Shown: piece by piece, positions 7,575 through 58,141 of the stretch
How positions within the stretch are numbered: the first letter of the stretch is position 1
Layout of the letters: every line of letters starts with the position of its first letter
Assembly: GCA_964592525.1 (NCBI GenBank)
Contig: CAZQFB010000001.1
Coordinates: 212,413-276,412, forward strand
Origin: an uncultured Candidatus Saccharibacteria bacterium
GTDB taxonomy: Bacteria; Patescibacteriota; WWE3; CAZQFB01
Direction of reading: 5' to 3'
DNA length: 64,000 bases
Position numbers and translations under genes: made by a program
The notes under the pieces: generated by a model
Seen by the model: only the letters and a program-made list of their open reading frames with translations
The model's database searches: none
Told to the model about the DNA's origin: nothing

Positions 7575-8441
7575 ATGGTAAAAGATGTTTCTATTGTCGT
7601 GCCGGTGTATAACGAAGAAAAAGGTATTTCTGCGGTTGTTACCGAAATTAGTCACAAAATCAAAGAGCTAGCACTTAACGCTGAAATTATCATTGTGAAT
7701 GATGGTTCTACGGATAACACGGCTTCCCTTCTGAACAAGTTAGTTAAAGAGCACCAAAATTTGCGGGTGTTAACTCATAAGGGCAATCGTGGTTACGGTG
7801 CGGCTTTAAAAACCGGTATTTTGCAGGCTAATCAGGAAACAATCGCGGTGATTGATGCTGATTGCACCTATCCTCTGGATCATTTTCAAGATCTGCTAGC
7901 GGGAATGGACGAAGCCGATATGGTCGTGGGAGCACGAACAGGAGACACGGTAGAAGTGGAAACTCTGCGCCGACCGGCTAAATGGTTCCTACGCAAATTG
8001 GCTGGCTATTTGGCTGAACGGGATATTCCCGATGTGAACTCGGGTTTTAGAGTGTTTAACCGTGAAATTGCGCTTAGCTATTTTCATATTCTCCCTAATA
8101 AGTTTTCTTTTACTACTACCATTACCTTAGCCATGTTTGCCGATGACTATACGGTGGCTTACGTGCCCATAAATTATTATGGTCGCAAAGGTGATTCCAA
8201 AATTAGACCCTTTGATGCCTGGAATTTTTTGGTGCTAATTCTGAAAACTATTTTTTACTTTAATCCGTTGAAGATAGTGTTACCGTTAGCCCTGATTACC
8301 GGTTTAGCGGGCTTAAGTAAATTGGGTTATGATGTTTTGGTCTTAGATAACCTAACCGATACTACTGTCTTGCTGATTCTCTTCTCCATCCAAATCCTAG
8401 GATTTGGTTTACTGGCCGACTTGATCGTGAGGCGAACGTGA
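7575..8441 (+). CDS. GT2 polyprenol-phosphate glycosyltransferase (DPM synthase / GtrB-like) with C-terminal TM helices
   Basis: VSIVVPVYNEE...IIIVNDGSTDNT...GNRGYGAALKTG...AVIDADCTYP, with two C-terminal TM segments. Confidence 0.75.
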   Translation: MVKDVSIVVPVYNEEKGISAVVTEISHKIKELALNAEIIIVNDGSTDNTASLLNKLVKEHQNLRVLTHKGNRGYGAALKTGILQANQETIAVIDADCTYPLDHFQDLLAGMDEADMVVGARTGDTVEVETLRRPAKWFLRKLAGYLAERDIPDVNSGFRVFNREIALSYFHILPNKFSFTTTITLAMFADDYTVAYVPINYYGRKGDSKIRPFDAWNFLVLILKTIFYFNPLKIVLPLALITGLAGLSKLGYDVLVLDNLTDTTVLLILFSIQILGFGLLADLIVRRT

Positions 8442-9421
8442 ACCCTACTTTAAAGAAATACCTGCTCCCCGCCATTCTGTCATTCGTATTTCTCTTCTTT
8501 CTTTTTAAATTGATTGGTGATCCAAAAGCCTTTATTGAAAACATCTTTAATCTCAACCCTTATTATTTGGGGTTGGCTTTTATCTTTTATACGATAGTCG
8601 CTATCGCTCGTTCCTTAAGAATCCAAGCAGTATACCCGGAGGAAAAGTATCCTTTGGGGAAACTGGTGGCAGTATCTAACCTACACACCTTTATCAGTAA
8701 TGTTTTCCCTTCCCGTTTGGGGGAGTTTTCTTTTATTTACCTGATGCGCAAAGTATTTGGTCAACATGCCGGCCGTAACACCATTGCTCTAATCTTTGTG
8801 CGCATTATGGATACTTTTACCGTCGCCTCTTTTTTCATTGTGTCCGCCGGTATTGTGGGGTTTACTCATGCTGGCATAGATCACCTGTGGGTTTTCTTTA
8901 TGCTAGTGGTCCTGCTCGGGTTAGCCTCTTTCTACCTTGATATTTTGGTTAATATTGGGGTGTCATTAGTAAAAGCTATCATCTCCCTAGTTAAGCTTGA
9001 AGGTGTTAGCCCTGTTCGCAAGCTATTGGATTTTTTAGATGCTTTGCTAGGTTTTAAGATGCTTCGTTCAAAGGGAGTTTATGGGCGAACCATGTTTCTT
9101 TCCTTTGTGGTGTGGACCTTTTTAATGCTGGCGAATAAAGCGATGACCATGGCCATGGGTCTGGATCTTACCTTTCCGGTGCTCTTTTTTGCATCCACTG
9201 GAGCGGTGCTCACCAGTTTAATACCGGTGACGACCTTTGCGGCGGTGGGTACCTATGAGTTGGGGTGGATTGGCGCCTTTGCTCTGATTGGGATGGGTAG
9301 GGAAGAGGCTATTATTACCGGTTTAACTATTCACACGATCAACTTTGTCTTCTCGGCAATTTTGGGTGGATTGGGGTTTTTGGTGATAAATAAAAGTACC
9401 CGACAACAAGAAACCCCATAG
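8438..9421 (+). CDS. UPF0104 / lysyl-PG-synthase-TM-like flippase-like membrane protein
   Basis: A 327 aa polytopic protein. The N-terminal KKYLLPAILSFVFLFFLFK...LNPYYLGLAFIFY...ARSLRIQ is typical of the flippase-like domain family that is often paired with GT2 enzymes. Its start overlaps the upstream GT2 stop. Confidence 0.55.
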   Translation: MNPTLKKYLLPAILSFVFLFFLFKLIGDPKAFIENIFNLNPYYLGLAFIFYTIVAIARSLRIQAVYPEEKYPLGKLVAVSNLHTFISNVFPSRLGEFSFIYLMRKVFGQHAGRNTIALIFVRIMDTFTVASFFIVSAGIVGFTHAGIDHLWVFFMLVVLLGLASFYLDILVNIGVSLVKAIISLVKLEGVSPVRKLLDFLDALLGFKMLRSKGVYGRTMFLSFVVWTFLMLANKAMTMAMGLDLTFPVLFFASTGAVLTSLIPVTTFAAVGTYELGWIGAFALIGMGREEAIITGLTIHTINFVFSAILGGLGFLVINKSTRQQETP

Positions 9422-10372
9422 TTGATTAAGTGTTTCCTCTTTTATATAATTCCTTGGCACTCGGAGTTCGCCGAAGTGTCTATCGCCTCGCTCCAAGGGA
9501 GTGAAGGTGCAGGAGGGATCGTTGTGAGCGACCCAACACTAGCCCAATTGAAGCAGTTTTTTGATCTGCTCGATGGGGTTCTGGATGCCAAGAGAACACT
9601 CCAAGGCATCATTGAGAAGTGGGGAGTAGTAAGATTGGTAGGCAATACTCCTCACACGCAGAAAGAGCTTCTTCAGCTTCTGCAGGACTACCTTGAGGGT
9701 AGGATTGTGCTTGATCGCTTTGCTCTCTTTAGTGAGCTTCTGCTGAGCCCGGCTGATCAGCTGGAGCGTCTCCGAGCATATGACGAGAAATACTGGGGAG
9801 GTGCAATCTGCGAGGAGCTAAAGGGTTTTCAGTTACCCGATGTAGGTCTTCACCCGCAAAGGGTGAAGGATTTGCGGGTTCTTCATGTGGAATTTGGCTC
9901 TCCGGGAGAGACCCTGGAGAGGTGGTGGCAGGTGATCTCAGCTACCCAGCCCGGGTCTTGGCGATCGGGAGATCTCCAGAGTGATTCTGCTCATCTGGGT
10001 CTCCACAGCCAGGCACGCCACTACCCTCCAGGAATCCATGTGGTTCGCCTAGACCTGGCGGCCCATTGGGAGCCGGAAGCGGGGAGAACCCTGGTGGATG
10101 TATACGCTAGGGTTAGGGAAGCTGGGGAGAAGCTTGCCCATGGTGAGATTCTCTCGGCCTGTGGGCTCCATCCTGATCTGGTAAGGGAGATGGATGGAGA
10201 GAATCTGCCTTTCGTGGATCTGGCAGGGTATCAGGTATTAATGCCTGGTTTACCGACCTGTCGGGCTGTTCCGTGTCTTTACTGGGATAGCCTCAGAGGC
10301 AAGGTCGCCCTCGACGTCGACTCCATTGACTATTTCCTTCCCTCTTGGGCGGCTCCGGTGCTCAGGGAGTAA
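9422..10372 (+). CDS. hypothetical protein encoded in an atypically GC-rich segment (possible horizontally acquired gene)
   Basis: The ORF is 316 aa with a TTG-initiated track start, and the true start is uncertain. The DNA is visibly GC-rich (~55%) against ~40% flanks. The codon pattern is coherent (gag/ctg/ggg rich), and no family was recognised. Confidence 0.35.
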   Translation: MIKCFLFYIIPWHSEFAEVSIASLQGSEGAGGIVVSDPTLAQLKQFFDLLDGVLDAKRTLQGIIEKWGVVRLVGNTPHTQKELLQLLQDYLEGRIVLDRFALFSELLLSPADQLERLRAYDEKYWGGAICEELKGFQLPDVGLHPQRVKDLRVLHVEFGSPGETLERWWQVISATQPGSWRSGDLQSDSAHLGLHSQARHYPPGIHVVRLDLAAHWEPEAGRTLVDVYARVREAGEKLAHGEILSACGLHPDLVREMDGENLPFVDLAGYQVLMPGLPTCRAVPCLYWDSLRGKVALDVDSIDYFLPSWAAPVLRE

Positions 10373-10439
10373 GTACTCCTACTTAGGGTCTTAGGGCTTT
10401 TGGTGATAAGTCCTTGGACCTTTGTTTGAGAGAAAGAGA

Positions 10440-10495
10440 AGGGGTGTCTTCTGAAATCTGCTTGCAGATTATGGAGGCACCCCTCTTTGTTTTAT
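10440..10495 (+). terminator. compound hairpin followed by T-tract (intrinsic terminator after GC-rich ORF)
   Basis: aggggtg (10440-10446) pairs with cacccct (10478-10484) around an inner AATCTGC-TT-GCAGATT hairpin, followed by ctttgtttt. Confidence 0.4.
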
Positions 10496-10646
10496 CCATA
10501 AGTAAGGGTATCAAAGGAATTGATTCTGATAATAAGGCGTTAGTGGAAAAGGTGTAGAATTTGGTTCCCCAGTAATCCTTTTACCTTGAGGTTACGTCTA
10601 AACCCATATGTTTACTGCCTGAACCAGGCCTGGCCTAGTTCAGCCT

Positions 10647-11372
10647 TTATTCTATTGGTTTTAGATAGAAGGGTTCGAGGATACCTATATAATTGGTATA
10701 GCCTTCGGGTTGTTGTAGCGTAGTGGCTGACAGGAACTTAAACTCCCTGCTCTCCCCACCAGTGGGGTCGTGAATGATAAGTGAATCAGCAGTACCTGTT
10801 TCGGCGTTATAGCCTTTGATCCCGGTAACTACCATACCATGACCCACCCACCCCATGTAGTTTTGCACGTTAATTATTACGGGGTAACCCTCTGTTAATG
10901 TTTGATAAATTGCCGAGGCATTACGTTCAATCTTAACTGCTTCAAAGTTGTAGATCTTAGCCCCCGAGTACAGATCGTAAAACATTACTCCCTTTACATA
11001 AACACTACTGGGTAGCTTATCAATTACGGTAATAAGATCAGTGTCCACGCCATGATATTGAAAGGACATCGTTAAAGCCGTAGGCCCACAAGCAGACCAC
11101 ATGATCTCACCTTGCCTAGCTTCGGGTAAATCGTAATATTGGTGAACATAAGGCACGTTAAGCTCAAGGTGATCGGTCTCATTGACCTTAAATTGCCCAG
11201 CATTCTCCACCCTTTCTGCAAGGATAAGCTCTGGGGCATTTGGTTGTAGTTGAGGCTCTTGTGGCGCGGTAATTAAAGATAATAGCGCGATTGAGCCAGT
11301 GATTAAGGCGTTCATAATGTACTCCTTAAAAAATAAGCGCCCCGGTTGGGACGCGACGCGGATTATACTCAA
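10647..11372 (-). CDS. secreted C39-like (papain-fold) cysteine peptidase domain protein
   Basis: There is a putative Cys-His-Asp arrangement: WSACGPTALTMS...GHGMVVTGI...IHDP. An internal Met (MNALITGSIALLSLITA) followed by a hydrophobic segment suggests the true start is near 11315 with a signal peptide. Confidence 0.45.
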   Translation of the reverse strand: MSIIRVASQPGRLFFKEYIMNALITGSIALLSLITAPQEPQLQPNAPELILAERVENAGQFKVNETDHLELNVPYVHQYYDLPEARQGEIMWSACGPTALTMSFQYHGVDTDLITVIDKLPSSVYVKGVMFYDLYSGAKIYNFEAVKIERNASAIYQTLTEGYPVIINVQNYMGWVGHGMVVTGIKGYNAETGTADSLIIHDPTGGESREFKFLSATTLQQPEGYTNYIGILEPFYLKPIE

Positions 11373-11408
11373 CTATAGGTTTGTTGTCAAATCACCTCTG
11401 GGTAGTTT

Positions 11409-12755
11409 ATGCTGTTAGTAATGCTCAAGAAAAAACTGTTAATTACGTTATCCCTAGCTGCGGTGGGTTGCTCAATGGTGCTTTTATACATAAGTCAGCA
11501 AACACCACAAGTTGGCGAAGTGGTTATTGGTAATCAATTGTCTCAAGGTACTCGGTTGGGGGAGGTTGATCTCTCTTATTTGACGGTACCAGAAGCGGTC
11601 AGCAAGTTACAGGAGTATGCTCATAAAACTACTCTCGTTGCTTTTCCTCATCGGGCACAAAGATTTAGCTATGCTGATTTAGGGGTGGGTTTTAATTATC
11701 AAGTGCTGGAGGATTATCGCCAGCAATGTACTAAAACCTGGTTTGGTTGTGAAGAACAAGCTTACCCCGTGCCTTTGGCTAACAGGATTATTTCTATTAA
11801 CGAGACTGAATTTAAAGAGTTTGTGAGTTTAATGAACACACAAGTTACTTCTCTTTTGTCAGCTAACGATGTTTCTTTTGAGGATTTAACTTTTCGGGCA
11901 CATGACCCTAATGGTCAAATTGTTGTGGATGAGGTTAAGCTACGGCAGCAATTAAATAGTCAGAAAATATTTAGCCAAAAGATCATTGCGGTGGAAACTA
12001 TGCTAAATCAGGTAAGAGATTTGTCGGCGCAAGAAGAAGCGACTGTTAGCTTAGTAGCGGCGGTAACGACCACTCCGTTATTGATTAAATATGGTCGGCA
12101 ACCAGTTAGCCTTGCTAGTGAAACGCTAACCACTTTTATTGATTTAGTCCCTCGGTCTGGTTTTACCACCGCACAAATTAACACGCTAGCCATCAAAGAT
12201 TATTTAGCCACCTTAGCAAAGCGATACCCTTTAGCGATTGAGTTGGAAGAAAAACAAGCGGTGTTAAGTATTGCTCGTGCGCTACTTTATCGTGCGGGAG
12301 GAGAAAGTCCCGCGACTGTCGTCATATTACCGCTTAAGGGTGAACCGACGACGGATGGTAGTTATGCCCCTAAATATTTGGAACTTATTAAAAGCCAACA
12401 ACGAATGTATGCCTTTGAAAACGGTGCGTTGGTAGATACCTATATTGTGGGCACAGGGTTGACTTGGGAAACCCCGTCGGGGAACTTCCAGATCATGCGC
12501 AAACCGGGGATGTCTATTTCCTATACTGGCGGGTGGTTTATGCCTTACTATATGCCGATTGGCACAATTAATGGTTATTTTTTTGGGTTGCATGAAATTC
12601 CCTACCGCCTGAATGCCTATGGCAATATTACCTCCAGGGACGTGAATACCATGGGATCTCCGGCTACTGGTGGTTGTATCCAGCTATACAGAGAAGATGC
12701 TATTCACTTGTTTGAGTGGGCAGATGTGGGTATGCCAGTACTGATTAGGGAGTGA
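11409..12755 (+). CDS. L,D-transpeptidase (YkuD domain) family protein
   Basis: The C-terminal catalytic domain has GLHEIPY...SPATGGCIQL (His...GGC, the Ldt active-site signature). There is an N-terminal TM/signal segment. Confidence 0.7.
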   Translation: MLLVMLKKKLLITLSLAAVGCSMVLLYISQQTPQVGEVVIGNQLSQGTRLGEVDLSYLTVPEAVSKLQEYAHKTTLVAFPHRAQRFSYADLGVGFNYQVLEDYRQQCTKTWFGCEEQAYPVPLANRIISINETEFKEFVSLMNTQVTSLLSANDVSFEDLTFRAHDPNGQIVVDEVKLRQQLNSQKIFSQKIIAVETMLNQVRDLSAQEEATVSLVAAVTTTPLLIKYGRQPVSLASETLTTFIDLVPRSGFTTAQINTLAIKDYLATLAKRYPLAIELEEKQAVLSIARALLYRAGGESPATVVILPLKGEPTTDGSYAPKYLELIKSQQRMYAFENGALVDTYIVGTGLTWETPSGNFQIMRKPGMSISYTGGWFMPYYMPIGTINGYFFGLHEIPYRLNAYGNITSRDVNTMGSPATGGCIQLYREDAIHLFEWADVGMPVLIRE

Positions 12756-24122: not shown

Positions 24123-24452
24123 TTAAGATGAGTTATCATCCCACCACGTAAAAAAGCCGAAGTAACCTAATACTTCAACAGCTATTTGGATGGGGATGAA
24201 GATACCCGCCAAGCTACTTGGTAGTATTTCCATCGGAACCTCAACGATACTACCTTTCTCGTTACGCGCTTTGAGGTGCTCCTCCTGAACATTGCCCACG
24301 CAATAAGCGCAAACCTGGGTGATCTCTAGGGGGCTCCTTCCCACGGTCTTTTGCAGAGTTGCTACCAAATTGGAGAGGCGGACGAAGAAGCTAGGGCTGG
24401 GGAGTCCGGGATGCTTTGAGTACTCCCAGACACCAGGGTACTTCATTTTCAC
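24123..24452 (-). CDS. small hypothetical protein with C-terminal hydrophobic segment
   Basis: A 109 aa protein. No family was recognised. GGAGG lies 13 nt upstream of the ATG, and the local GC is slightly raised. Confidence 0.3.
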   Translation of the reverse strand: MKMKYPGVWEYSKHPGLPSPSFFVRLSNLVATLQKTVGRSPLEITQVCAYCVGNVQEEHLKARNEKGSIVEVPMEILPSSLAGIFIPIQIAVEVLGYFGFFTWWDDNSS

Positions 24453-44765: not shown

Positions 44766-47555
44766 ATGGAACTAGCCTTTTTAACCTTACTTTTTTGTTG
44801 CCTAGCACTATACATTACCTCTCGTGATCTCAAGTGGGGGTTAGTGTTATTGGTGCTAACTCTCCCCTTAAATAATCGCTTGATGTTTGATTTATTTATT
44901 TCTCAACAACTATTACCGGTTAGGTTAGTTTTGGTAGCTGTGCTGATAGTGCTGCTTAAGAACACATGGCTTGCATACCACCCATTCTCTGTGAAAGAAA
45001 GGTGGTCTTCTCTACTTAAAATGGGGCGACAAGACCCATTTCTATTTTTACTGATAAGTTTGTTGGGGGTGCGGGTTTTGTCTTTAATCAATGTGATTAA
45101 CTTTAAATTTTCTTTAACCTTTATGGTTTTTTATCTGGCGATGATTGGCATGTATTTGGTGATGAAGTATGTTTATGCTCGTGAGGGGCGCGAATTTTTC
45201 TACCAACTTTTCCAACTTCATGCTGGGGTGGTGGTAGCTACGAGTTTGTTTAGTGTGGTGCAATTTTTCTTTTTTAAAGGTATTGGTAGAGTGTTGCCGG
45301 GAGTCTGGCCTTCCACCACCGAACCGACTAGGTTTGGGTCAACTTTTTGGGATATTAATCACTATGCTCCCTATGTAGGTAGTGTGATTCCTTATTTCTT
45401 GATAAGGCTGATTGCTGCTAAGACTAATAAGGAACGAGTATTATTTGGTTTTTGTTTTGGGCTGACTAATATCAGCTTGCTGATGACGTTGTCTCGAAGT
45501 GGTTGGTTAGGTTATGCTTTTGGGCTCGGTGTCTTTGGTTTGTTGCTGATAATCAGAAAGATGTGGCGTGGTTTTTCTTGGTATTTAGCTGCCATGATAT
45601 TGATTATGCTAGCCGCTTTAGCAGGGGATATGTACTTCAACCATCCGATCTCAAGAAGGATAAAATCCTTAGGTACTAATGTTTACAACGAATCTTTTAA
45701 TGCGCACCAAATTCTGAATAAAGGTCATTTTGAGTTGTTCTCTAGACATCCGGTGATTGGTTCTGGGTATGGTAACTTTAGTGACCAGTTTAGAACTACC
45801 CCACATGCGGCTAAATATTTTGAGATTGATCCGGTTGCAGAAGTGCGTTTGCCTTCTCATAGTGTCTGGTTAGAAATAATGTCTGAAACAGGGATGCTGG
45901 GATTAACCACATTTTTGGTCTTAGTGGCTTATGTTTTTAGACGGTTATTTTTAGCGATGAACACTAGTGAAGAGAAGTGGCGCTATCTAGGTGTAGCGCT
46001 GTTTGCCTCAATTGCTGGCATGTTATTTTCTTCTCTTTTTTACCACTATAACCTGGAGTATTTCTGGCTGATAATTTTCCTAGCGGTCTTTGTGGCGCGC
46101 AGTGTGTTGCCCACCGAACAGTATCAACCTCAAGATTACTTGGTCACCTTTTTACTGGTTGGTTTAGCCACTGCCATGATTTTTCCACAGCTGGGTAAGA
46201 ACGCTCTTATTGACTGGGATGAATCCATTTATGCACAAGTCGCCAAAAATATTGCTCGCTTTCGTGATCCGATCACCCTGCGTTGGCATTTAGAGAAATA
46301 TTGGTTTGAAAAGCCTCCGCTCTATTTTTGGTTCACAGCAGCGCTTTACTTGGTTCATGAGGTGTCTGAATTTTCAGCTCGCTTTTGGTCCGCACTGTCT
46401 GGTGTTTTGGGGGTAGTGCTCGTCTATTTTTTTGGTCGTGACTTAGCAGGTAGAGCTGTTGGGTTGGCTTCGGCACTGACCTTGCTCTCTACTGTTCATT
46501 GGTTGTTCCAGTCAAGAAATGGCACTTTAGATGTGATGGCAGCAACTTGTATAGTGGCCACACTTTGGTTGTTTTACCGAGCACGGACGCGGTTGAGGGA
46601 CTGGTGGTTGGTGGGAGTTGGTTTGGGTCTGACCTTGATGGTTAAAGGAGCCGTGGCAGCGGTTCCTTTATTGATTATGGTTATATTTGGGGGATATGAA
46701 TATTTTCTGCAGCAGAAAAAAAATTACTACCCCTGCCGACAGCTTTTTGTAAGAATACTGGTGCCTTTCAGTGTGCTTGTCTTACCCTGGCATATCGCTG
46801 TTATCTGGCTTCATGGTCGGCAATTTATTGATTCGTACTTTTTTTATCATGTTCTGCAACGATCAACCACTGGTATTGAGCAACATGGTCATTCTTTTTT
46901 CTGGTATTTGATTGTCATTAAAGTGTGGGCTAGACATAATTTTGTACTGCTGCTTGGCTCTTTAGCCTTACTGTTTACAAGTTGGCTGAAAAAAAGGCGC
47001 CGTGGTCTAAAAGCAAATACGCCAGAAGTGTTTTTGATTTTATATTTACTAGTAGCGTGGCTGATATTTTCCCTTTCGGCTTCAAAGATTCAGTGGTACA
47101 TTATGCCCTTGTATCCAGCGATGTCTTTAATTGTGGGTTATAGTTTGGTAATACTGTTTAGGTGGTTACCTTTGAAAAGGTTTATACCCATATTATTAAT
47201 GGTCTTGACTTTAAGTGTGCCTTTTTTTAAAGATCGTTATCAGTCACTATGGAATCTGGAAGATGCTTGGCGAGGCGTTGCCGAAGTTGTGCCTCATCTT
47301 AAGTATGAAGCGCGAAAAGTCTCCTCGCCGCGACTGTTAATAATTGATATGTCTCCAGGTCCGGCAATGTTTTACAGCCCCCATCCAACGGAAACAGGTA
47401 ACTTTTCAACGTTGGTTAAAGCGGCGGAAAGTGAGAACTCTTTCTTTGCCGTTGCTAGAGTAGGGCAAGCCGAAGATCTGATAAAGCTTTATCCGGAAAG
47501 GAAGGTTAAAATATATAAACAGTCTGAAGATTTTGCGCTGCTGGGTAGATGGTAA
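44766..47555 (+). CDS. fusion protein: N-terminal O-antigen ligase/polymerase-like (Wzy_C) domain + C-terminal PMT/ArnT-like GT-C domain
   Basis: The 929 aa protein has a first half containing LMTLSRSGWLGYAFGLGVFGLLL (Wzy_C/O-antigen ligase motif) and a long periplasmic loop. The second half contains IDWDESIYAQVAKNI...FEKPPLYFWF (DE motif plus KPPL, the ArnT/PMT signature). Confidence 0.55.
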   Translation: MELAFLTLLFCCLALYITSRDLKWGLVLLVLTLPLNNRLMFDLFISQQLLPVRLVLVAVLIVLLKNTWLAYHPFSVKERWSSLLKMGRQDPFLFLLISLLGVRVLSLINVINFKFSLTFMVFYLAMIGMYLVMKYVYAREGREFFYQLFQLHAGVVVATSLFSVVQFFFFKGIGRVLPGVWPSTTEPTRFGSTFWDINHYAPYVGSVIPYFLIRLIAAKTNKERVLFGFCFGLTNISLLMTLSRSGWLGYAFGLGVFGLLLIIRKMWRGFSWYLAAMILIMLAALAGDMYFNHPISRRIKSLGTNVYNESFNAHQILNKGHFELFSRHPVIGSGYGNFSDQFRTTPHAAKYFEIDPVAEVRLPSHSVWLEIMSETGMLGLTTFLVLVAYVFRRLFLAMNTSEEKWRYLGVALFASIAGMLFSSLFYHYNLEYFWLIIFLAVFVARSVLPTEQYQPQDYLVTFLLVGLATAMIFPQLGKNALIDWDESIYAQVAKNIARFRDPITLRWHLEKYWFEKPPLYFWFTAALYLVHEVSEFSARFWSALSGVLGVVLVYFFGRDLAGRAVGLASALTLLSTVHWLFQSRNGTLDVMAATCIVATLWLFYRARTRLRDWWLVGVGLGLTLMVKGAVAAVPLLIMVIFGGYEYFLQQKKNYYPCRQLFVRILVPFSVLVLPWHIAVIWLHGRQFIDSYFFYHVLQRSTTGIEQHGHSFFWYLIVIKVWARHNFVLLLGSLALLFTSWLKKRRRGLKANTPEVFLILYLLVAWLIFSLSASKIQWYIMPLYPAMSLIVGYSLVILFRWLPLKRFIPILLMVLTLSVPFFKDRYQSLWNLEDAWRGVAEVVPHLKYEARKVSSPRLLIIDMSPGPAMFYSPHPTETGNFSTLVKAAESENSFFAVARVGQAEDLIKLYPERKVKIYKQSEDFALLGRW

Positions 47556-54312: not shown

Positions 54313-55125
54313 TTAAACTTTAATCTCCATTCCATCAAAGACAAAATCAAAATCCATATCAGAATATTGTTTTTTCATTTTTTGGAGATGCTTCTCTCCC
54401 CAAATATTGATTTCAACTTCTTCAATGTGGGTTATAAGGGTTCTTTTTGGTCTAATCTCTCTCAATCTTTGCATCAAGGCATCGAAAGAAATTTCAGAAG
54501 GAATATCGGAAAATAAACCGCATTCATTTATCAATAAATCTAAATCTCTGAAATTTTTGTAATTATCGAAACTAATAGTATCACAAGGAGCATATAAAAC
54601 TTTTTTGCCGTTACTTTCAATCAAGAAGGCATAAGTTTCGGATTCTTTTCCCTTATAACCCACAACAGTTATAGAAACATCTCCGATTTTGATTTTGTCT
54701 CCATCTTCGATAAGGTGCAATGCCCCTGTTTTCTGGACATTGATATAGTATTCAATAACAGGAAATCTTTGCTTAAGGGTCTCGAAAACTTTTTTTGCAA
54801 CATAAATATTAACAGTTCTATCTGCTTTGCCTGTTCTGAAATTATAATACGATTCAAGAAGATGTCTTAAACCGAATGTATGATCTGGATGCCAATGAGT
54901 AATAAATAGATTATCTACTTGTTTTATATTTCTTCGGTTTAAAGAATCCGCAATATCTTCACCGCAATCAATAACTGTATTTATCTCATTGATAAAGATA
55001 GAACTGCTGTTTCGTTTGAATGGTTCTCCAAGTTTTCGAGCTTTCTTGCAAATTGTACATTGGCAGTATGGTCTTGGTGTGGGCATTGCACCGCCAGAAC
55101 CTAAAATCGTAAGTTTCATACTCAT
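54313..55125 (-). CDS. MBL-fold metallo-hydrolase (PhnP/PqqB-like phosphodiesterase type)
   Basis: ILGSGGAMPTPRPYCQCTIC...ITHWHPDHTFGL has the HxHxDH motif plus the N-terminal Cys cluster typical of PhnP-like enzymes. It lies in an AT-rich segment. Confidence 0.65.
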   Translation of the reverse strand: MSMKLTILGSGGAMPTPRPYCQCTICKKARKLGEPFKRNSSSIFINEINTVIDCGEDIADSLNRRNIKQVDNLFITHWHPDHTFGLRHLLESYYNFRTGKADRTVNIYVAKKVFETLKQRFPVIEYYINVQKTGALHLIEDGDKIKIGDVSITVVGYKGKESETYAFLIESNGKKVLYAPCDTISFDNYKNFRDLDLLINECGLFSDIPSEISFDALMQRLREIRPKRTLITHIEEVEINIWGEKHLQKMKKQYSDMDFDFVFDGMEIKV

Positions 55126-55300
55126 ACTATTTTCCTTAAAGTTTATAATTGTTTTGATTTAGCCGCCGAGCAATTGAATATAACGTCTGCGTGTATGAGA
55201 AGTTTCGCCGACTTCTCTATTATCTATAAAATGGAGGCGAAATTTGGGTGAAAGAAAAAGTGCAACCCTTGAAAATCATTAACGCACTTTTTCTTGAATC
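55126..55300. repeat. repeat element B (degenerate copy of element A: GTGTATGAGA...TCTCATACAC palindrome, atgagaagtt / aatttgggtg / agtgcaac blocks)
   Basis: The inverted-repeat arms lie at 55181-55190 and 55290-55299. It shares ordered sequence blocks with element A, and gccgccgagcaa at 55152-55163 is inverted relative to A. Confidence 0.5.
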
Positions 55301-55326
55301 TCATACACACTGTTATCGGATGTAAT

Positions 55327-55809
55327 TTAATAATTTTTTGGTATAAGCGAGATAATCTCCTCTACTGTTTCTTCTGGCGTTTGGTCAGTGTTATCAATAA
55401 TTTTGCCAAAAGCAGGCTGCGATATTCCAATATCATAATGATGCTTAATGCGATCGCGTTCCCATTGTGTCAATACTCTATCATTTGTATCGCTTTGCGC
55501 CTTTTTGATATCCGGCGATAGCGTGAAGAAATGTAATTCACTCCCCGTAAGTGCTGTTTTTAAATACTCATAGTTTTTTTGAGATAAGGGATAAGTAATC
55601 ACAACGTTATATCCATGTTTGGCAAAATTATTGATAACTAACACAGCATTTTCTAGGTTAATCGGAATCGCTTTATCTATTTCCAGCCAATGGATAAATT
55701 CGCGAAAACTATCAATCTCCACATTTGCTGTGTTTGGTATTTTACTGGTAAGTATTTTGGCTACCGTAGATTTTCCAGCGTTTATTGAGCCATTAATAAA
55801 GATGATCAT
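55327..55809 (-). CDS. P-loop kinase, chloramphenicol-phosphotransferase (CPT)-like / zeta-toxin-like small NTP-binding protein
   Basis: A Walker A motif sits at the extreme N-terminus (MIIFINGSINAGKST). The protein is 160 aa and lies in an AT-rich segment. Confidence 0.5.
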   Translation of the reverse strand: MIIFINGSINAGKSTVAKILTSKIPNTANVEIDSFREFIHWLEIDKAIPINLENAVLVINNFAKHGYNVVITYPLSQKNYEYLKTALTGSELHFFTLSPDIKKAQSDTNDRVLTQWERDRIKHHYDIGISQPAFGKIIDNTDQTPEETVEEIISLIPKNY

Positions 55810-55884
55810 TTAAAAAAAATTATTAAATTATTTCCGATAACTGGTAATTATGCAATTATTATAATATAACATATACCATATTAT

Positions 55885-56733
55885 GTGTATTATGCATACT
55901 TATGTTATTTTGTTAATATGCAAAACATATTAAATAATACCGATAGAGCTTTGCGCTTGCGAAACTATTCCCCAAGAACAAAAAGCGCATATTTGCTTTA
56001 TATTAAGGACTATATCACCTTCTCAAAGCGTGCTGAATTCAAGAACAAACAACAAGCTGTTGAAGACTTTTTGCTTGATAAGCACAAACAAGGAAAATCC
56101 CCGCAAACAATTAATCTCGCCCTCAATGCTATAAAATTCTTGTACCATGAGGTAATAAAAGATCCGCAGAAAATTGATGTGAGGTATGCAAAAAGAAGTA
56201 AGAAACTGCCCATTGTATTGTCCCGAGCAGAAATTAATAAAATTATTGAGGCTACAGAAAACCCTAAATACAGACTGATGATTTCACTTAGCTATGGCTG
56301 TGGTATGAGAGTGAGTGAAGTTGTTAATCTAAAAGTTGCTGATTTGGATATTGACGATCTTGTGGTGCATATCAAAGGAGCAAAAGGCAGAAAAGATAGA
56401 ATTAGCGTGTTGCCCGAAAAGTTGCAGAACGACTTGCGAAACAGCATTGCTGGCAAATATATGAGCGAGTTTGTCTTTGCTTCCAATCGCGGGGGTAACC
56501 TAACAACCACATCATTGCAAAAAATGTTCCGCCAAAGTCTGACCAAGGCAAAGGTGCATAAACCCGCTACTTTTCACTCACTCCGACATTCTTTCGCAAC
56601 ACATCTACTTGAAAACGGTGTTGATGTTCGCTATGTGCAGGAGCTTCTTGGTCATCAAAATATTCGGACTACGCAAATATACACGCAAGTTACAAACCCA
56701 AGCCTTAAAAATATCAGCAGCCCCCTTTGTTAA
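55885..56733 (+). CDS. tyrosine-type site-specific recombinase (XerC/XerD-IntI superfamily integrase)
   Basis: The C-terminal catalytic region is HSLRHSFATHLLENGVDVRYVQELLGHQNIRTTQIYTQV (R-H-R-Y). An upstream box I is present (GMRVSEVVNLKVADLD). It is divergent from the two AT-rich cassette-like genes. Confidence 0.8.
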   Translation: MYYAYLCYFVNMQNILNNTDRALRLRNYSPRTKSAYLLYIKDYITFSKRAEFKNKQQAVEDFLLDKHKQGKSPQTINLALNAIKFLYHEVIKDPQKIDVRYAKRSKKLPIVLSRAEINKIIEATENPKYRLMISLSYGCGMRVSEVVNLKVADLDIDDLVVHIKGAKGRKDRISVLPEKLQNDLRNSIAGKYMSEFVFASNRGGNLTTTSLQKMFRQSLTKAKVHKPATFHSLRHSFATHLLENGVDVRYVQELLGHQNIRTTQIYTQVTNPSLKNISSPLC

Positions 56734-56785: not shown

Positions 56786-58141
56786 ATGGCGACTTTGGAG
56801 CAGATAGTTTCTTTATGCAAAAGACGTGGGTTTGTTTTTCAATCTTCTGAAATCTATGGCGGTTTCTCCGCTGTATATGACTATGGCCCCTATGGTGTGG
56901 AGCTGGCTAGAAACATTACCCACCATTGGTGGAAAGCCATGGTTCAGGATCATGAGAATATCGTGGGTTTAGATGCGGCTATTTTTATGCATCCCAAGGT
57001 GTGGGAAGCCTCTGGTCATATGAGTGGGTTCTCCGACCCTTTGGTGGAATGCAAGAGTACGGGTGAAAGATTGCGGGTAGATCTTCTTTTGGAGGAGGTT
57101 GGGGTAAGGGCCGATGAAAAAATGAGCCTTTCCGAAATCCAACAACTCTTTGATGAAAACTTTGAGCAACTCAACCTGCCTTCCCAAGACAGAGCAGACT
57201 ACTCACCAGTTCGCGCCTTCAATCTACTCGTAAAATCAAATCTTGGTGACTTCACTCAAGAAGGAGACGAGGTTTCTTATTTAAGAGGAGAAACCGCACA
57301 AGGAATCTATGTCAATTTTAAAAATGTGGTGGATTCCACTAGGCAAAAAGTACCTTTTGGCATCGCTCAAGTGGGTAAAGCTTTTAGAAACGAAGTAACC
57401 GCTCGTCAGTTTATCTTTCGCACCCGTGAGTTTGAGCAAATGGAGATGCAATATTTTGTGCACCCTGATTTGGAGATGAAAGAATATGAGGGTTGGAAAG
57501 AAAGAAGAATGCAGTACTACCAAGATTTAGGCATTGCCGAGAATAAACTACGTTGGGCTAAGCATGAAAACTTGGTTTTTTATGCTAAAGAGGCTTTTGA
57601 TATTGAATATGAATTTCCCTTTGGGTTTAAAGAAGTTGAGGGGTTACATGCCAGGGGTGATTATGACCTTTCCCAGCATAGTAAATATTCCGGGGTGGAT
57701 TTGACTTACTTTGACCCCCACACCGAGGAGAAATATATACCTCATGTGGTGGAAACTTCCACGGGAGTGGCTCGCAATCTGCTGATGCATTTGTGTAATG
57801 CGTACGCGGAAGAAGAAGAACGGGTTGTGCTTAAGCTTCCCTATCAATTGGCTCCCGTTAAAGTGGCTGTTTTTCCTCTGCTTAGGAACAAGCCAGAGCT
57901 GGTGACTCGTGCCAGGGAAATATTTAACAACTTAAAAGTCAGTTATATGTGCGAGTTTGATGATAACGGCAACATCGGTAAGCGTTACCGTCGTCAAGAT
58001 GAGATCGGCACTCCCTTTTGTGTCACTGTAGATTTTGATTCCCTTCAGCAAGGTGATGTGACAGTCAGAGAAAGAGACTCAATGAAGCAGGAGCGGTTGA
58101 GTGCTGACGCACTGCTTGCATATTTATCACCAAAACTTTAG
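56786..58141 (+). CDS. glyQS: glycine--tRNA ligase (dimeric class II GlyQS type)
   Basis: The N-terminus LCKRRGFVFQSSEIYGGFSAVYDYGPYG is very characteristic. The FRNE motif and a C-terminal anticodon-binding domain are present. Confidence 0.85.
   Translation: MATLEQIVSLCKRRGFVFQSSEIYGGFSAVYDYGPYGVELARNITHHWWKAMVQDHENIVGLDAAIFMHPKVWEASGHMSGFSDPLVECKSTGERLRVDLLLEEVGVRADEKMSLSEIQQLFDENFEQLNLPSQDRADYSPVRAFNLLVKSNLGDFTQEGDEVSYLRGETAQGIYVNFKNVVDSTRQKVPFGIAQVGKAFRNEVTARQFIFRTREFEQMEMQYFVHPDLEMKEYEGWKERRMQYYQDLGIAENKLRWAKHENLVFYAKEAFDIEYEFPFGFKEVEGLHARGDYDLSQHSKYSGVDLTYFDPHTEEKYIPHVVETSTGVARNLLMHLCNAYAEEEERVVLKLPYQLAPVKVAVFPLLRNKPELVTRAREIFNNLKVSYMCEFDDNGNIGKRYRRQDEIGTPFCVTVDFDSLQQGDVTVRERDSMKQERLSADALLAYLSPKL

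Follow-up and report, generated by a model that had tools for sequence, protein, structure and literature searches.

Between an LPG_synthase_TM gene and a convergent Peptidase_C39_2 gene, the 64-kb stretch of DNA analyzed here (hereafter, the window) carries a single long open reading frame (ORF) on the + strand. It corresponds to P0001 in a public protein collection (Table 1). Called mechanically, this ORF opens at TTG 9422, and the reverse strand of the same region contains only a 67-aa ORF. A preliminary description of this DNA had named the same surroundings (a "flippase-like" gene upstream and a convergent peptidase gene downstream), one long coding ORF inside a GC-rich island, and a compound terminator hairpin after it. 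Each of these elements is present, the hairpin with its T-run included.

The ORF stands out from the remainder of the window in base composition. Its GC content (9422-10372) is 54.2%, versus 41.5% for the whole window, and is the highest in the 64 kb when compared with all 950-bp windows (z = 4.3). The sole sustained run of 300-bp windows above 52% GC spans 9651-10450, with a peak of 60.3% at 9901; one lone window of this kind occurs elsewhere (52.3% at 24201). A two-boundary likelihood fit over 8000-12000 (log-likelihood gain 24.6) places the island at 9455-10369, with 55.4% GC inside and 42.3% outside, in agreement with the abrupt steps at about 9440 and 10380 described previously. The tetranucleotide distance of the island from the window average is 0.586 (mean 0.313, sd 0.044), the largest in the window. 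GC content at the three codon positions (GC1/GC2/GC3) is 0.686/0.411/0.555 in the ORF versus 0.489/0.349/0.400 in 47 host ORFs (z = 4.4, 2.8, and 3.7), and each value is above the maximum of these host ORFs. Windowed GC, tetranucleotide composition, and GC3, which the preliminary description had proposed as checks on the island, therefore all deviate clearly. The island has the atypical composition by which horizontally acquired genomic islets are recognized.

Table 1 Features of the GC-rich gene and its flanks, in window coordinates
Feature	Position	Strand	Remarks
Direct repeat, upstream copy, TTGGGGTTTTTGGTGATAA, 19 nt	9371..9389	+	In the 3' end of the LPG_synthase_TM-like gene
Promoter-like site, TTGATT-17 nt-TATAAT	9422..9450	+	10/12 consensus matches; directly after the upstream stop codon
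Coding sequence P0001	9476..10372	+	298 aa, GTG start, as in the public protein collection
N-terminal helical region	9533..9826	+	P0001 residues ~20-117; variable or absent in the family; residues 1-~75 replaced in P0002
C-terminal alpha/beta domain	9848..10369	+	P0001 residues ~125-298; divergent C-type-lectin/FGE-like fold (model)
VR-homologous segment	10240..10369	+	Last ~43 codons; in register with the TRs of related cassettes
GC-rich VR 3' end, IMH-like element, TGGGCGGCTCCGGTGCTCAGGGA	10346..10368	+	22/23 to the L002 TR end, 20/23 to that of L004
Hairpin H1, short, over the stop codon	10365..10380	+	Similar place (at or just past the stop codon) in most homologues
Hairpin H2, interrupted	10385..10422	+	Homologue, by position and sequence, of the family's conserved inverted repeat 3' of the VR
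Compound hairpin and T-run, preceded by an A-rich run	10433..10496	+	z = -4.0 for 10340-10500

The true start codon is probably downstream of TTG 9422, since promoter-like -35 and -10 elements occupy 9422-9450. The preliminary description had likewise looked for the start further in, which is reasonable given that the promoter-like site overlaps the TTG. Judged by its consensus matches, this site may function as a promoter. Among the candidate starts, GTG 9524 has the best Shine-Dalgarno sequence (AGGAGGG at 9511-9517, with a 6-nt spacer) and is probably a better start than GTG 9476. Initiation at this codon would yield a 282-aa product whose N terminus lines up with the family described below, and would remove residues 1-17 of P0001, which are disordered in the structural model (low pLDDT). 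At the other end of the gene, the compound hairpin is probably a bidirectional intrinsic terminator that serves both this gene and the convergent peptidase gene.

The earlier statement that the product has no recognizable motif is borne out in Pfam, NCBIfam, PHROGs, and PADLOC and among PDB sequences. The window protein matches no Pfam family at E ≤ 1, and 71 members of its family match none at E ≤ 0.01, FGE-sulfatase (PF03781) and CLec families included. Nothing significant emerged from NCBIfam, PHROGs, or PADLOC (the sole NCBIfam hit scored 12.8 bits versus a cutoff of 40), PDB sequence and profile searches returned noise only (best, a 69-aa chain matching the N-terminal region at E = 0.011), and no relative was found in a viral contigs collection. 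A word-indexed search recovered three proteins: P0001, P0002, and P0003, the last of which comes from a Logan contig and is 40% identical to the window protein. A profile search over 1.84 billion representatives, in turn, identified 288 clusters at E < 1e-3, 39 of them at E < 1e-30. Outside the window, the family is seen almost exclusively in Candidatus Saccharibacteria/Saccharimonadia metagenome bins (MAGs). Most family members are 210-290 aa long and have conserved motifs in common, with a median pairwise identity of ~41%. None of the domain and family libraries searched contains this family.

The genomic context of the homologues links the family to the diversity-generating retroelements (DGRs) of ultra-small CPR (Patescibacteria) bacteria. 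In 14 related loci (~11 non-redundant), the homologue is followed directly by a template repeat (TR), then by an Avd gene on the reverse strand and a reverse transcriptase (RT) of CPR type, in the order target - TR - avd - RT, with the last two genes assigned to bAvd (PF22296) and RVT_1. These DGR-linked homologues are 31-48% identical to the window protein. A second copy of the last ~125 nt of the homologue (the variable repeat, VR) lies between the gene and avd as the TR. The two repeats differ in 13 of the 14 loci, and nearly all of the differences fall at template adenines (21/21 mismatches in L002; 17/17 and 15/18 for the two tandem targets of L003; 15/16 in L004; 11/11 in L006; 18/20 in L011; 14/15 in L012; 20/20 in L017; 19/19 in L018; 17/17 in L029; 16/17 in L032; and 17/17 in L037). 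In the remaining locus, L022, the VR is identical to the TR. Confinement of TR/VR differences to adenines is the defining signature of DGRs, and the family to which the window gene belongs is thus a family of DGR targets, a link that the preliminary description could not have seen. Relatives of the cassette RTs, among the best 120 of 7998 RT matches, carry names of Saccharimonadales, Uhrbacteria, or the Patescibacteria group. Two of the homologous cassettes abut prophage-like blocks. Targets often occur in multiple copies, as tandem genes in L003 and L006 and as extra VRs in L004 and L007. Gene order and the reverse-strand avd, taken by themselves, suggest that the cassettes have architecture B3, which accounts for 90% of CPR DGRs (PMC5758913).

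In such a cassette, RNA from the TR would be reverse-transcribed with errors at adenines only, and the cDNA would then replace the VR of the target gene. The codons rewritten in this way, about a dozen, would lie on the C-terminal face of a domain with C-type-lectin fold and create a hypervariable binding surface.

The predicted structure of the window protein agrees with this role. An AlphaFold (AF2) model based on a 31-sequence alignment has a pLDDT of 85.8, with values above 90 for residues 80-298; an earlier model from 3 sequences was unusable (pLDDT 35). Structural relatives of the model include PorK, the C-terminal domains of EgtB/OvoA, SUMF2, PvdO, invasin, intimin, and many animal C-type lectin domains. 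Foldseek searches against PDB and BFVD returned nothing significant, although the top two hits were C-type lectin domains. In the model, the VR-homologous segment lies within the predicted C-type lectin fold. This is consistent with PMC8144416, where VRs are C-terminal in near-universal C-Lec folds with modular N-termini and novel C-Lec variants are predicted in CPR. No signal peptide or transmembrane (TM) segment was detected in the window protein (maximum 19-aa hydropathy 0.95). The protein may bind a ligand, by way of a putative CLec-type surface at residues ~256-298.

The window copy has kept the full anatomy of a DGR target: a helical N-terminal region, a CLec-like domain, a VR-homologous end, an IMH-like end, conserved downstream hairpins, and a promoter-like site and terminator of its own. 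When the VR-homologous segment is compared with eight foreign TRs, it is identical at 57/85 (67%) of the template non-A positions and at 11/30 (37%) of the template-A positions (Fisher p = 0.005), the pattern expected if a template like these had once been used to write this end of the gene. At the DNA level, foreign TRs match the window nowhere but at the GC-rich 3' end of this segment, and the near-identity of this end to the L002 TR end exists despite the proteins being only ~45% identical. The cis elements of DGRs include an IMH and a GC-rich inverted repeat downstream (PMC5758913), and the window copy has counterparts of both. The 3' flank of the window gene aligns with that of family members, and an RNAalifold consensus of H2 across 11 loci contains 10 pairs, 6 of which have compensatory double changes.

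The components that would write the VR are absent from the window. None of the proteins used as tblastn queries against the 64 kb (three cassette RTs and one Avd) had a match below E = 0.2, and a sensitive blastn search with three TRs recovered no TR and nothing beyond the gene's own 3' end. With TR, Avd, and RT all missing from the 64 kb, the gene is a stand-alone copy. Further, none of the best 120 of 7998 matches in an RT profile search lies on the 344-kb contig described next. On balance, we consider the window gene to belong, as a stand-alone copy, to a family of variable proteins of CPR-type DGRs that has a divergent C-type-lectin fold, with a probability of about 0.82.

A paralogue, P0002, is located on the same 344,256-bp contig as P0001, outside the window. 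Ten other window proteins map to this contig, nine of them as singleton clusters, and P0001 and P0002 therefore belong to the window's own replicon. The C-terminal 222 aa of the two proteins are 100% identical at the protein level, VR included, and their first ~75 residues have diverged. This mosaic, another instance of the multi-copy state of the targets, fits the modular recombination of N-terminal domains and C-Lec domains proposed in PMC8144416.

For the window copy, two situations come into question: a DGR elsewhere in the 344-kb contig or genome uses it as a non-adjacent target, or it has been retired. Targets of the non-adjacent and remote kind have been described, seven non-adjacent ones for the Treponema denticola DGR alone (PMC5758913), and one related MAG has a copy with an RT (L018) and a copy without (L007) on separate contigs. 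An active gene would be diversified in trans by an RT, Avd, and TR outside the window, perhaps beside P0002. The retained IMH-like end and hairpins H1 and H2 would be expected in that case, as would the intact ORF with its own promoter-like site, and we regard current activity as a distinct possibility, if the less favored one. However, the identical VR of P0002 argues against diversification of either copy since their duplication or conversion, and the 81-nt stretch of H1 and H2 folds with -9.7 kcal/mol in the window versus about -20 kcal/mol for the equivalents in several cassette-linked copies, making H2 much weaker here. Because the same-contig paralogue shares the C-terminal 222 aa and because the GC3 of the window copy is among the lowest of the family (see below), we lean toward a quiescent or retired target.

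The preliminary description had interpreted the island as a gene acquired horizontally from a higher-GC donor. The first part of that interpretation stands, in that the island looks like an insertion of mobile-element-associated DNA. The second is not supported, since the family is GC-rich even beside low-GC RTs. In all 14 cassettes (~11 non-redundant), the target has a higher GC3 than its own RT (difference, 13-61 points; mean, 33; Wilcoxon p = 1.2e-4), and this excess holds even in hosts with 36-41% GC. Target genes typically have GC3 values of 0.6-0.94 over their whole ~0.8-kb length, versus 0.30-0.58 in the avd and RT genes next to them and in the host genome. For example, the L037 target has a GC3 of 0.914 and its RT 0.303 in a 41% GC context, and a stand-alone copy, L024, has a GC3 of 0.923 versus 41% GC flanks. 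In L037 and L022, GC content changes sharply at either end of the gene, and the TR shows a smaller rise. Inside the cassette, the GC step falls between the TR and avd. GC1 (~0.63-0.70) and GC2 (~0.38-0.45) are constant in the family and are set by amino acid composition. Since members are ~41% identical to each other, synonymous sites would have reached equilibrium, and the GC3 bias must therefore be maintained. High GC content is intrinsic to this protein family and is maintained in it; it is not a readout of the donor genome. The window copy is near the low end of the family together with L012, L023, and L039, and exceeds only L014 and L038, which is compatible with a long residence in its host or with loss of the force that raises GC3.

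Plain horizontal transfer, in which the island records the base composition of a high-GC donor and has no link to DGRs, would account for the island being the strongest outlier of the window in both GC content and tetranucleotide composition. In PMC5758913, transfer of DGRs is argued from atypical GC content, and a few family members (L005, L015, L020, and L021) do reside in contigs of 57-66% GC. A 19-nt direct repeat could be read in the same way, as it brackets a 1020-nt unit: 9371-9389 and 10391-10409 are identical at 17/19 positions with a spacing of 1020 nt, and their 12-mer core occurs three times in the 64 kb (0.02 expected). As an insertion junction, this repeat is possible but ambiguous. 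A simple target-site duplication was rejected, since hairpin H2, which derives from the family, contains the downstream copy and other stand-alone copies of the gene have no consistent flanking repeats. There is no integrase or transposase among the neighboring genes, and a prophage location was rejected because the neighbors are envelope glycosylation and cell-wall genes. A donor composition does not explain targets that are far richer in GC3 than their own RTs in every cassette, a GC step within the cassette, synonymous sites that at this level of identity would be long equilibrated, or a GC1 that is fixed by amino acid composition throughout the family. Transfer of this plain kind is therefore improbable. 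We judge it even less likely, to the point of being very hard to credit, that the contig is an assembly chimera containing a piece of DNA from a higher-GC organism. Sharp compositional boundaries and a metagenome-type assembly with singleton proteins would suit such an artifact, but the same single-gene GC island recurs in independent NCBI, ENA, JGI, and Logan assemblies. The promoter-like site, the terminator, and the family-specific 3' flank also follow in the expected order, and the intermediate GC3 of 0.555 is what would be expected of a resident gene and not of a fresh foreign fragment.

GC-rich DNA can yield long false ORFs, such as a 197-aa antisense ORF in L001, and the segment might in principle encode a structured RNA or no product at all. 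Conservation of the protein with its motifs over 288 clusters, the confident AF2 model, the codon-position pattern, and the short ORF on the opposite strand all argue for a coding sequence. Rfam was empty both at the gathering threshold and at E ≤ 1, and tRNA scans found nothing. This explanation has a negligible probability.

The cause of the GC3 bias is a separate matter. The GC3 island may reflect a target-gene-specific force tied to DGR biology, a proposal that we hold tentatively and with more doubt than belief. If so, the leading guess is GC-biased gene conversion or repair resulting from frequent recombination among multi-copy targets, with selection on the DNA or RNA structure of the target as an alternative. 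A footprint of adenine-to-guanine retro-mutagenesis over the whole gene was rejected, as the coding strands of the Saccharibacteria homologues are symmetric in composition, with A fractions of 0.175-0.20 versus T fractions of 0.167-0.185 and G approximately equal to C. Term searches of two large DGR surveys, PMC8144416 and PMC5758913, turned up no mention of a GC contrast between targets and RTs.

These observations replace an anonymous hypothetical protein in a GC island with a specific annotation: a member of a family of DGR variable proteins, encoded by a stand-alone gene of an uncultivated, probably CPR-like bacterium. About half of the family loci with enough flanking sequence have no adjacent RT, and target repertoires may therefore be underestimated; PMC8144416 states explicitly that DGR surveys based on RT adjacency miss non-adjacent targets. 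GC3 islands of target genes beside their own low-GC RTs also undermine the shortcut by which atypical GC content is equated with recent transfer from a GC-rich donor. If a target-specific force were indeed responsible, the GC3 island would allow DGR targets, orphans included, to be spotted in low-GC genomes from sequence alone. The family-wide GC3 island may matter more than the annotation of the window gene itself and merits a systematic test.

Compared with known systems, the window gene is not new in kind, as DGRs and non-adjacent targets are already known. The CLec-like domains of FGE-sulfatase, the EgtB-OvoA C-terminal region, PvdO, and PorK resemble the window protein in scaffold only, without a sequence-profile match or a catalytic context. 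Likewise, the DGR target proteins Mtd of Bordetella phage BPP-1 (1yu0) and TvpA of Treponema denticola (2y3c) have no detectable sequence similarity to the window protein and match its fold only moderately; the window protein differs further in having no tail-fiber or lipoprotein context, signal peptide, or TM segment. Published remote DGR targets (PMC5758913) were matched to a known TR by A-to-N differences, whereas the window copy is known without its TR. It is like them in being far from any RT while retaining the VR end and the downstream repeat. CPR-type DGR cassettes (B3 in PMC5758913; clade 2 in PMC8144416) differ from the window in that the window holds the target gene alone, with no TR, Avd, or RT in 64 kb. 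Their likeness to it is direct, since these cassettes have homologues of the window protein as their targets, and it extends in the related loci to adenine-specific TR/VR differences, a GC-rich VR end, and a downstream inverted repeat.

In every complete cassette, that is, those with a target gene, template repeat (TR), reverse-strand avd and reverse transcriptase (RT) gene (L002, L003, L004, L006, L011, L012, L017, L018, L022, L023, L029, L032, L037, and L039, all loci with homologues of the window gene in other contigs), the target gene forms a sharp GC3 island (0.58 to 0.94) of symmetric strand composition. The neighboring avd and RT genes are both low in GC (RT GC3 of 0.30 to 0.58), and the TR shows a GC bump smaller than that of the target.

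The GC island of the window sits inside a 1020-nt unit flanked by the two copies of a 19-nt direct repeat, whose 12-mer core (TTTTGGTGATAA) occurs three times in the 64 kb, compared with 0.02 expected. If the reading frame of the upstream LPG_synthase_TM-like gene is kept, the downstream copy would run on as ...GLLVISPWTFV* to a stop codon (10427-10429) a few nucleotides ahead of the compound terminator hairpin. The repeat pair could represent an insertion junction; however, its downstream copy also falls within the hairpin typical of the family.

Features and their positions (window or homologous loci)
Feature	Location	Positions	Note
Target GC3 island, example	L037	1-2400	
19-nt direct repeat	window	9371-9389 and 10391-10409	two copies, 17/19 identical
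12-mer core, third copy	window	58124-58135	minus strand
Paralogue P0002	same 344,256-bp contig as window, outside window		
Two target copies or extra VR	L003	10001-11951	
Two target copies or extra VR	L006	6001-7883	
Two target copies or extra VR	L004	32-158	
Two target copies or extra VR	L007	8690-8822	
TR identical to VR	L022	6859-6987	
DGR cassette and prophage-like block	L002	1-7300	
DGR cassette and prophage-like block	L003	2300-9800	
Envelope-glycosylation region	window	15595-38187 and 44766-47555	
Second tetranucleotide outlier	window	54341-56240	
ORFs under this outlier	window	54313-55125 and 55327-55809	minus strand

Elsewhere in the window, an unusually dense envelope-glycosylation region contains a long series of ORFs of ~470 to 560 aa each. 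Four sampled ORFs of this size and a 929-aa ORF, a Wzy_C-PMT fusion, match PMT/PMT_2-type membrane glycosyltransferases. The window also encodes MurJ, GT4 and GT2 enzymes, a DUF4012 protein, and a PBP2-type transpeptidase. A further segment ranks second as a tetranucleotide outlier (distance 0.47 to 0.48, mean 0.31).

The C-terminal 222 aa of P0002, a paralogue, are identical to those of the window protein, while its N-terminal ~75 aa look unrelated, a mosaic pattern that points to recent conversion or shuffling of domains. In several genomes one TR serves two target copies, as tandem targets or extra copies of the VR (the 3' end of the target gene). The VR of L022 is 100% identical to its TR, so this target is currently undiversified.

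Prophage-like blocks encoding a terminase large subunit, a ParB-N6/N4 methylase, an S24 peptidase and HTH repressor pair, and DUF4352 adjoin two homologous DGR cassettes, and the block of L003 includes a serine recombinase. A search of the viral contig collection turned up no relative. L012 (CAYGBE010000054.1) and L023 carry a CPR-type DGR cassette with the target family of the window gene on a contig of 36% GC. Binning assigns the contig of L012 to an 'uncultured archaeon', reflecting either a mis-binned contig or spread of the cassette across domains.
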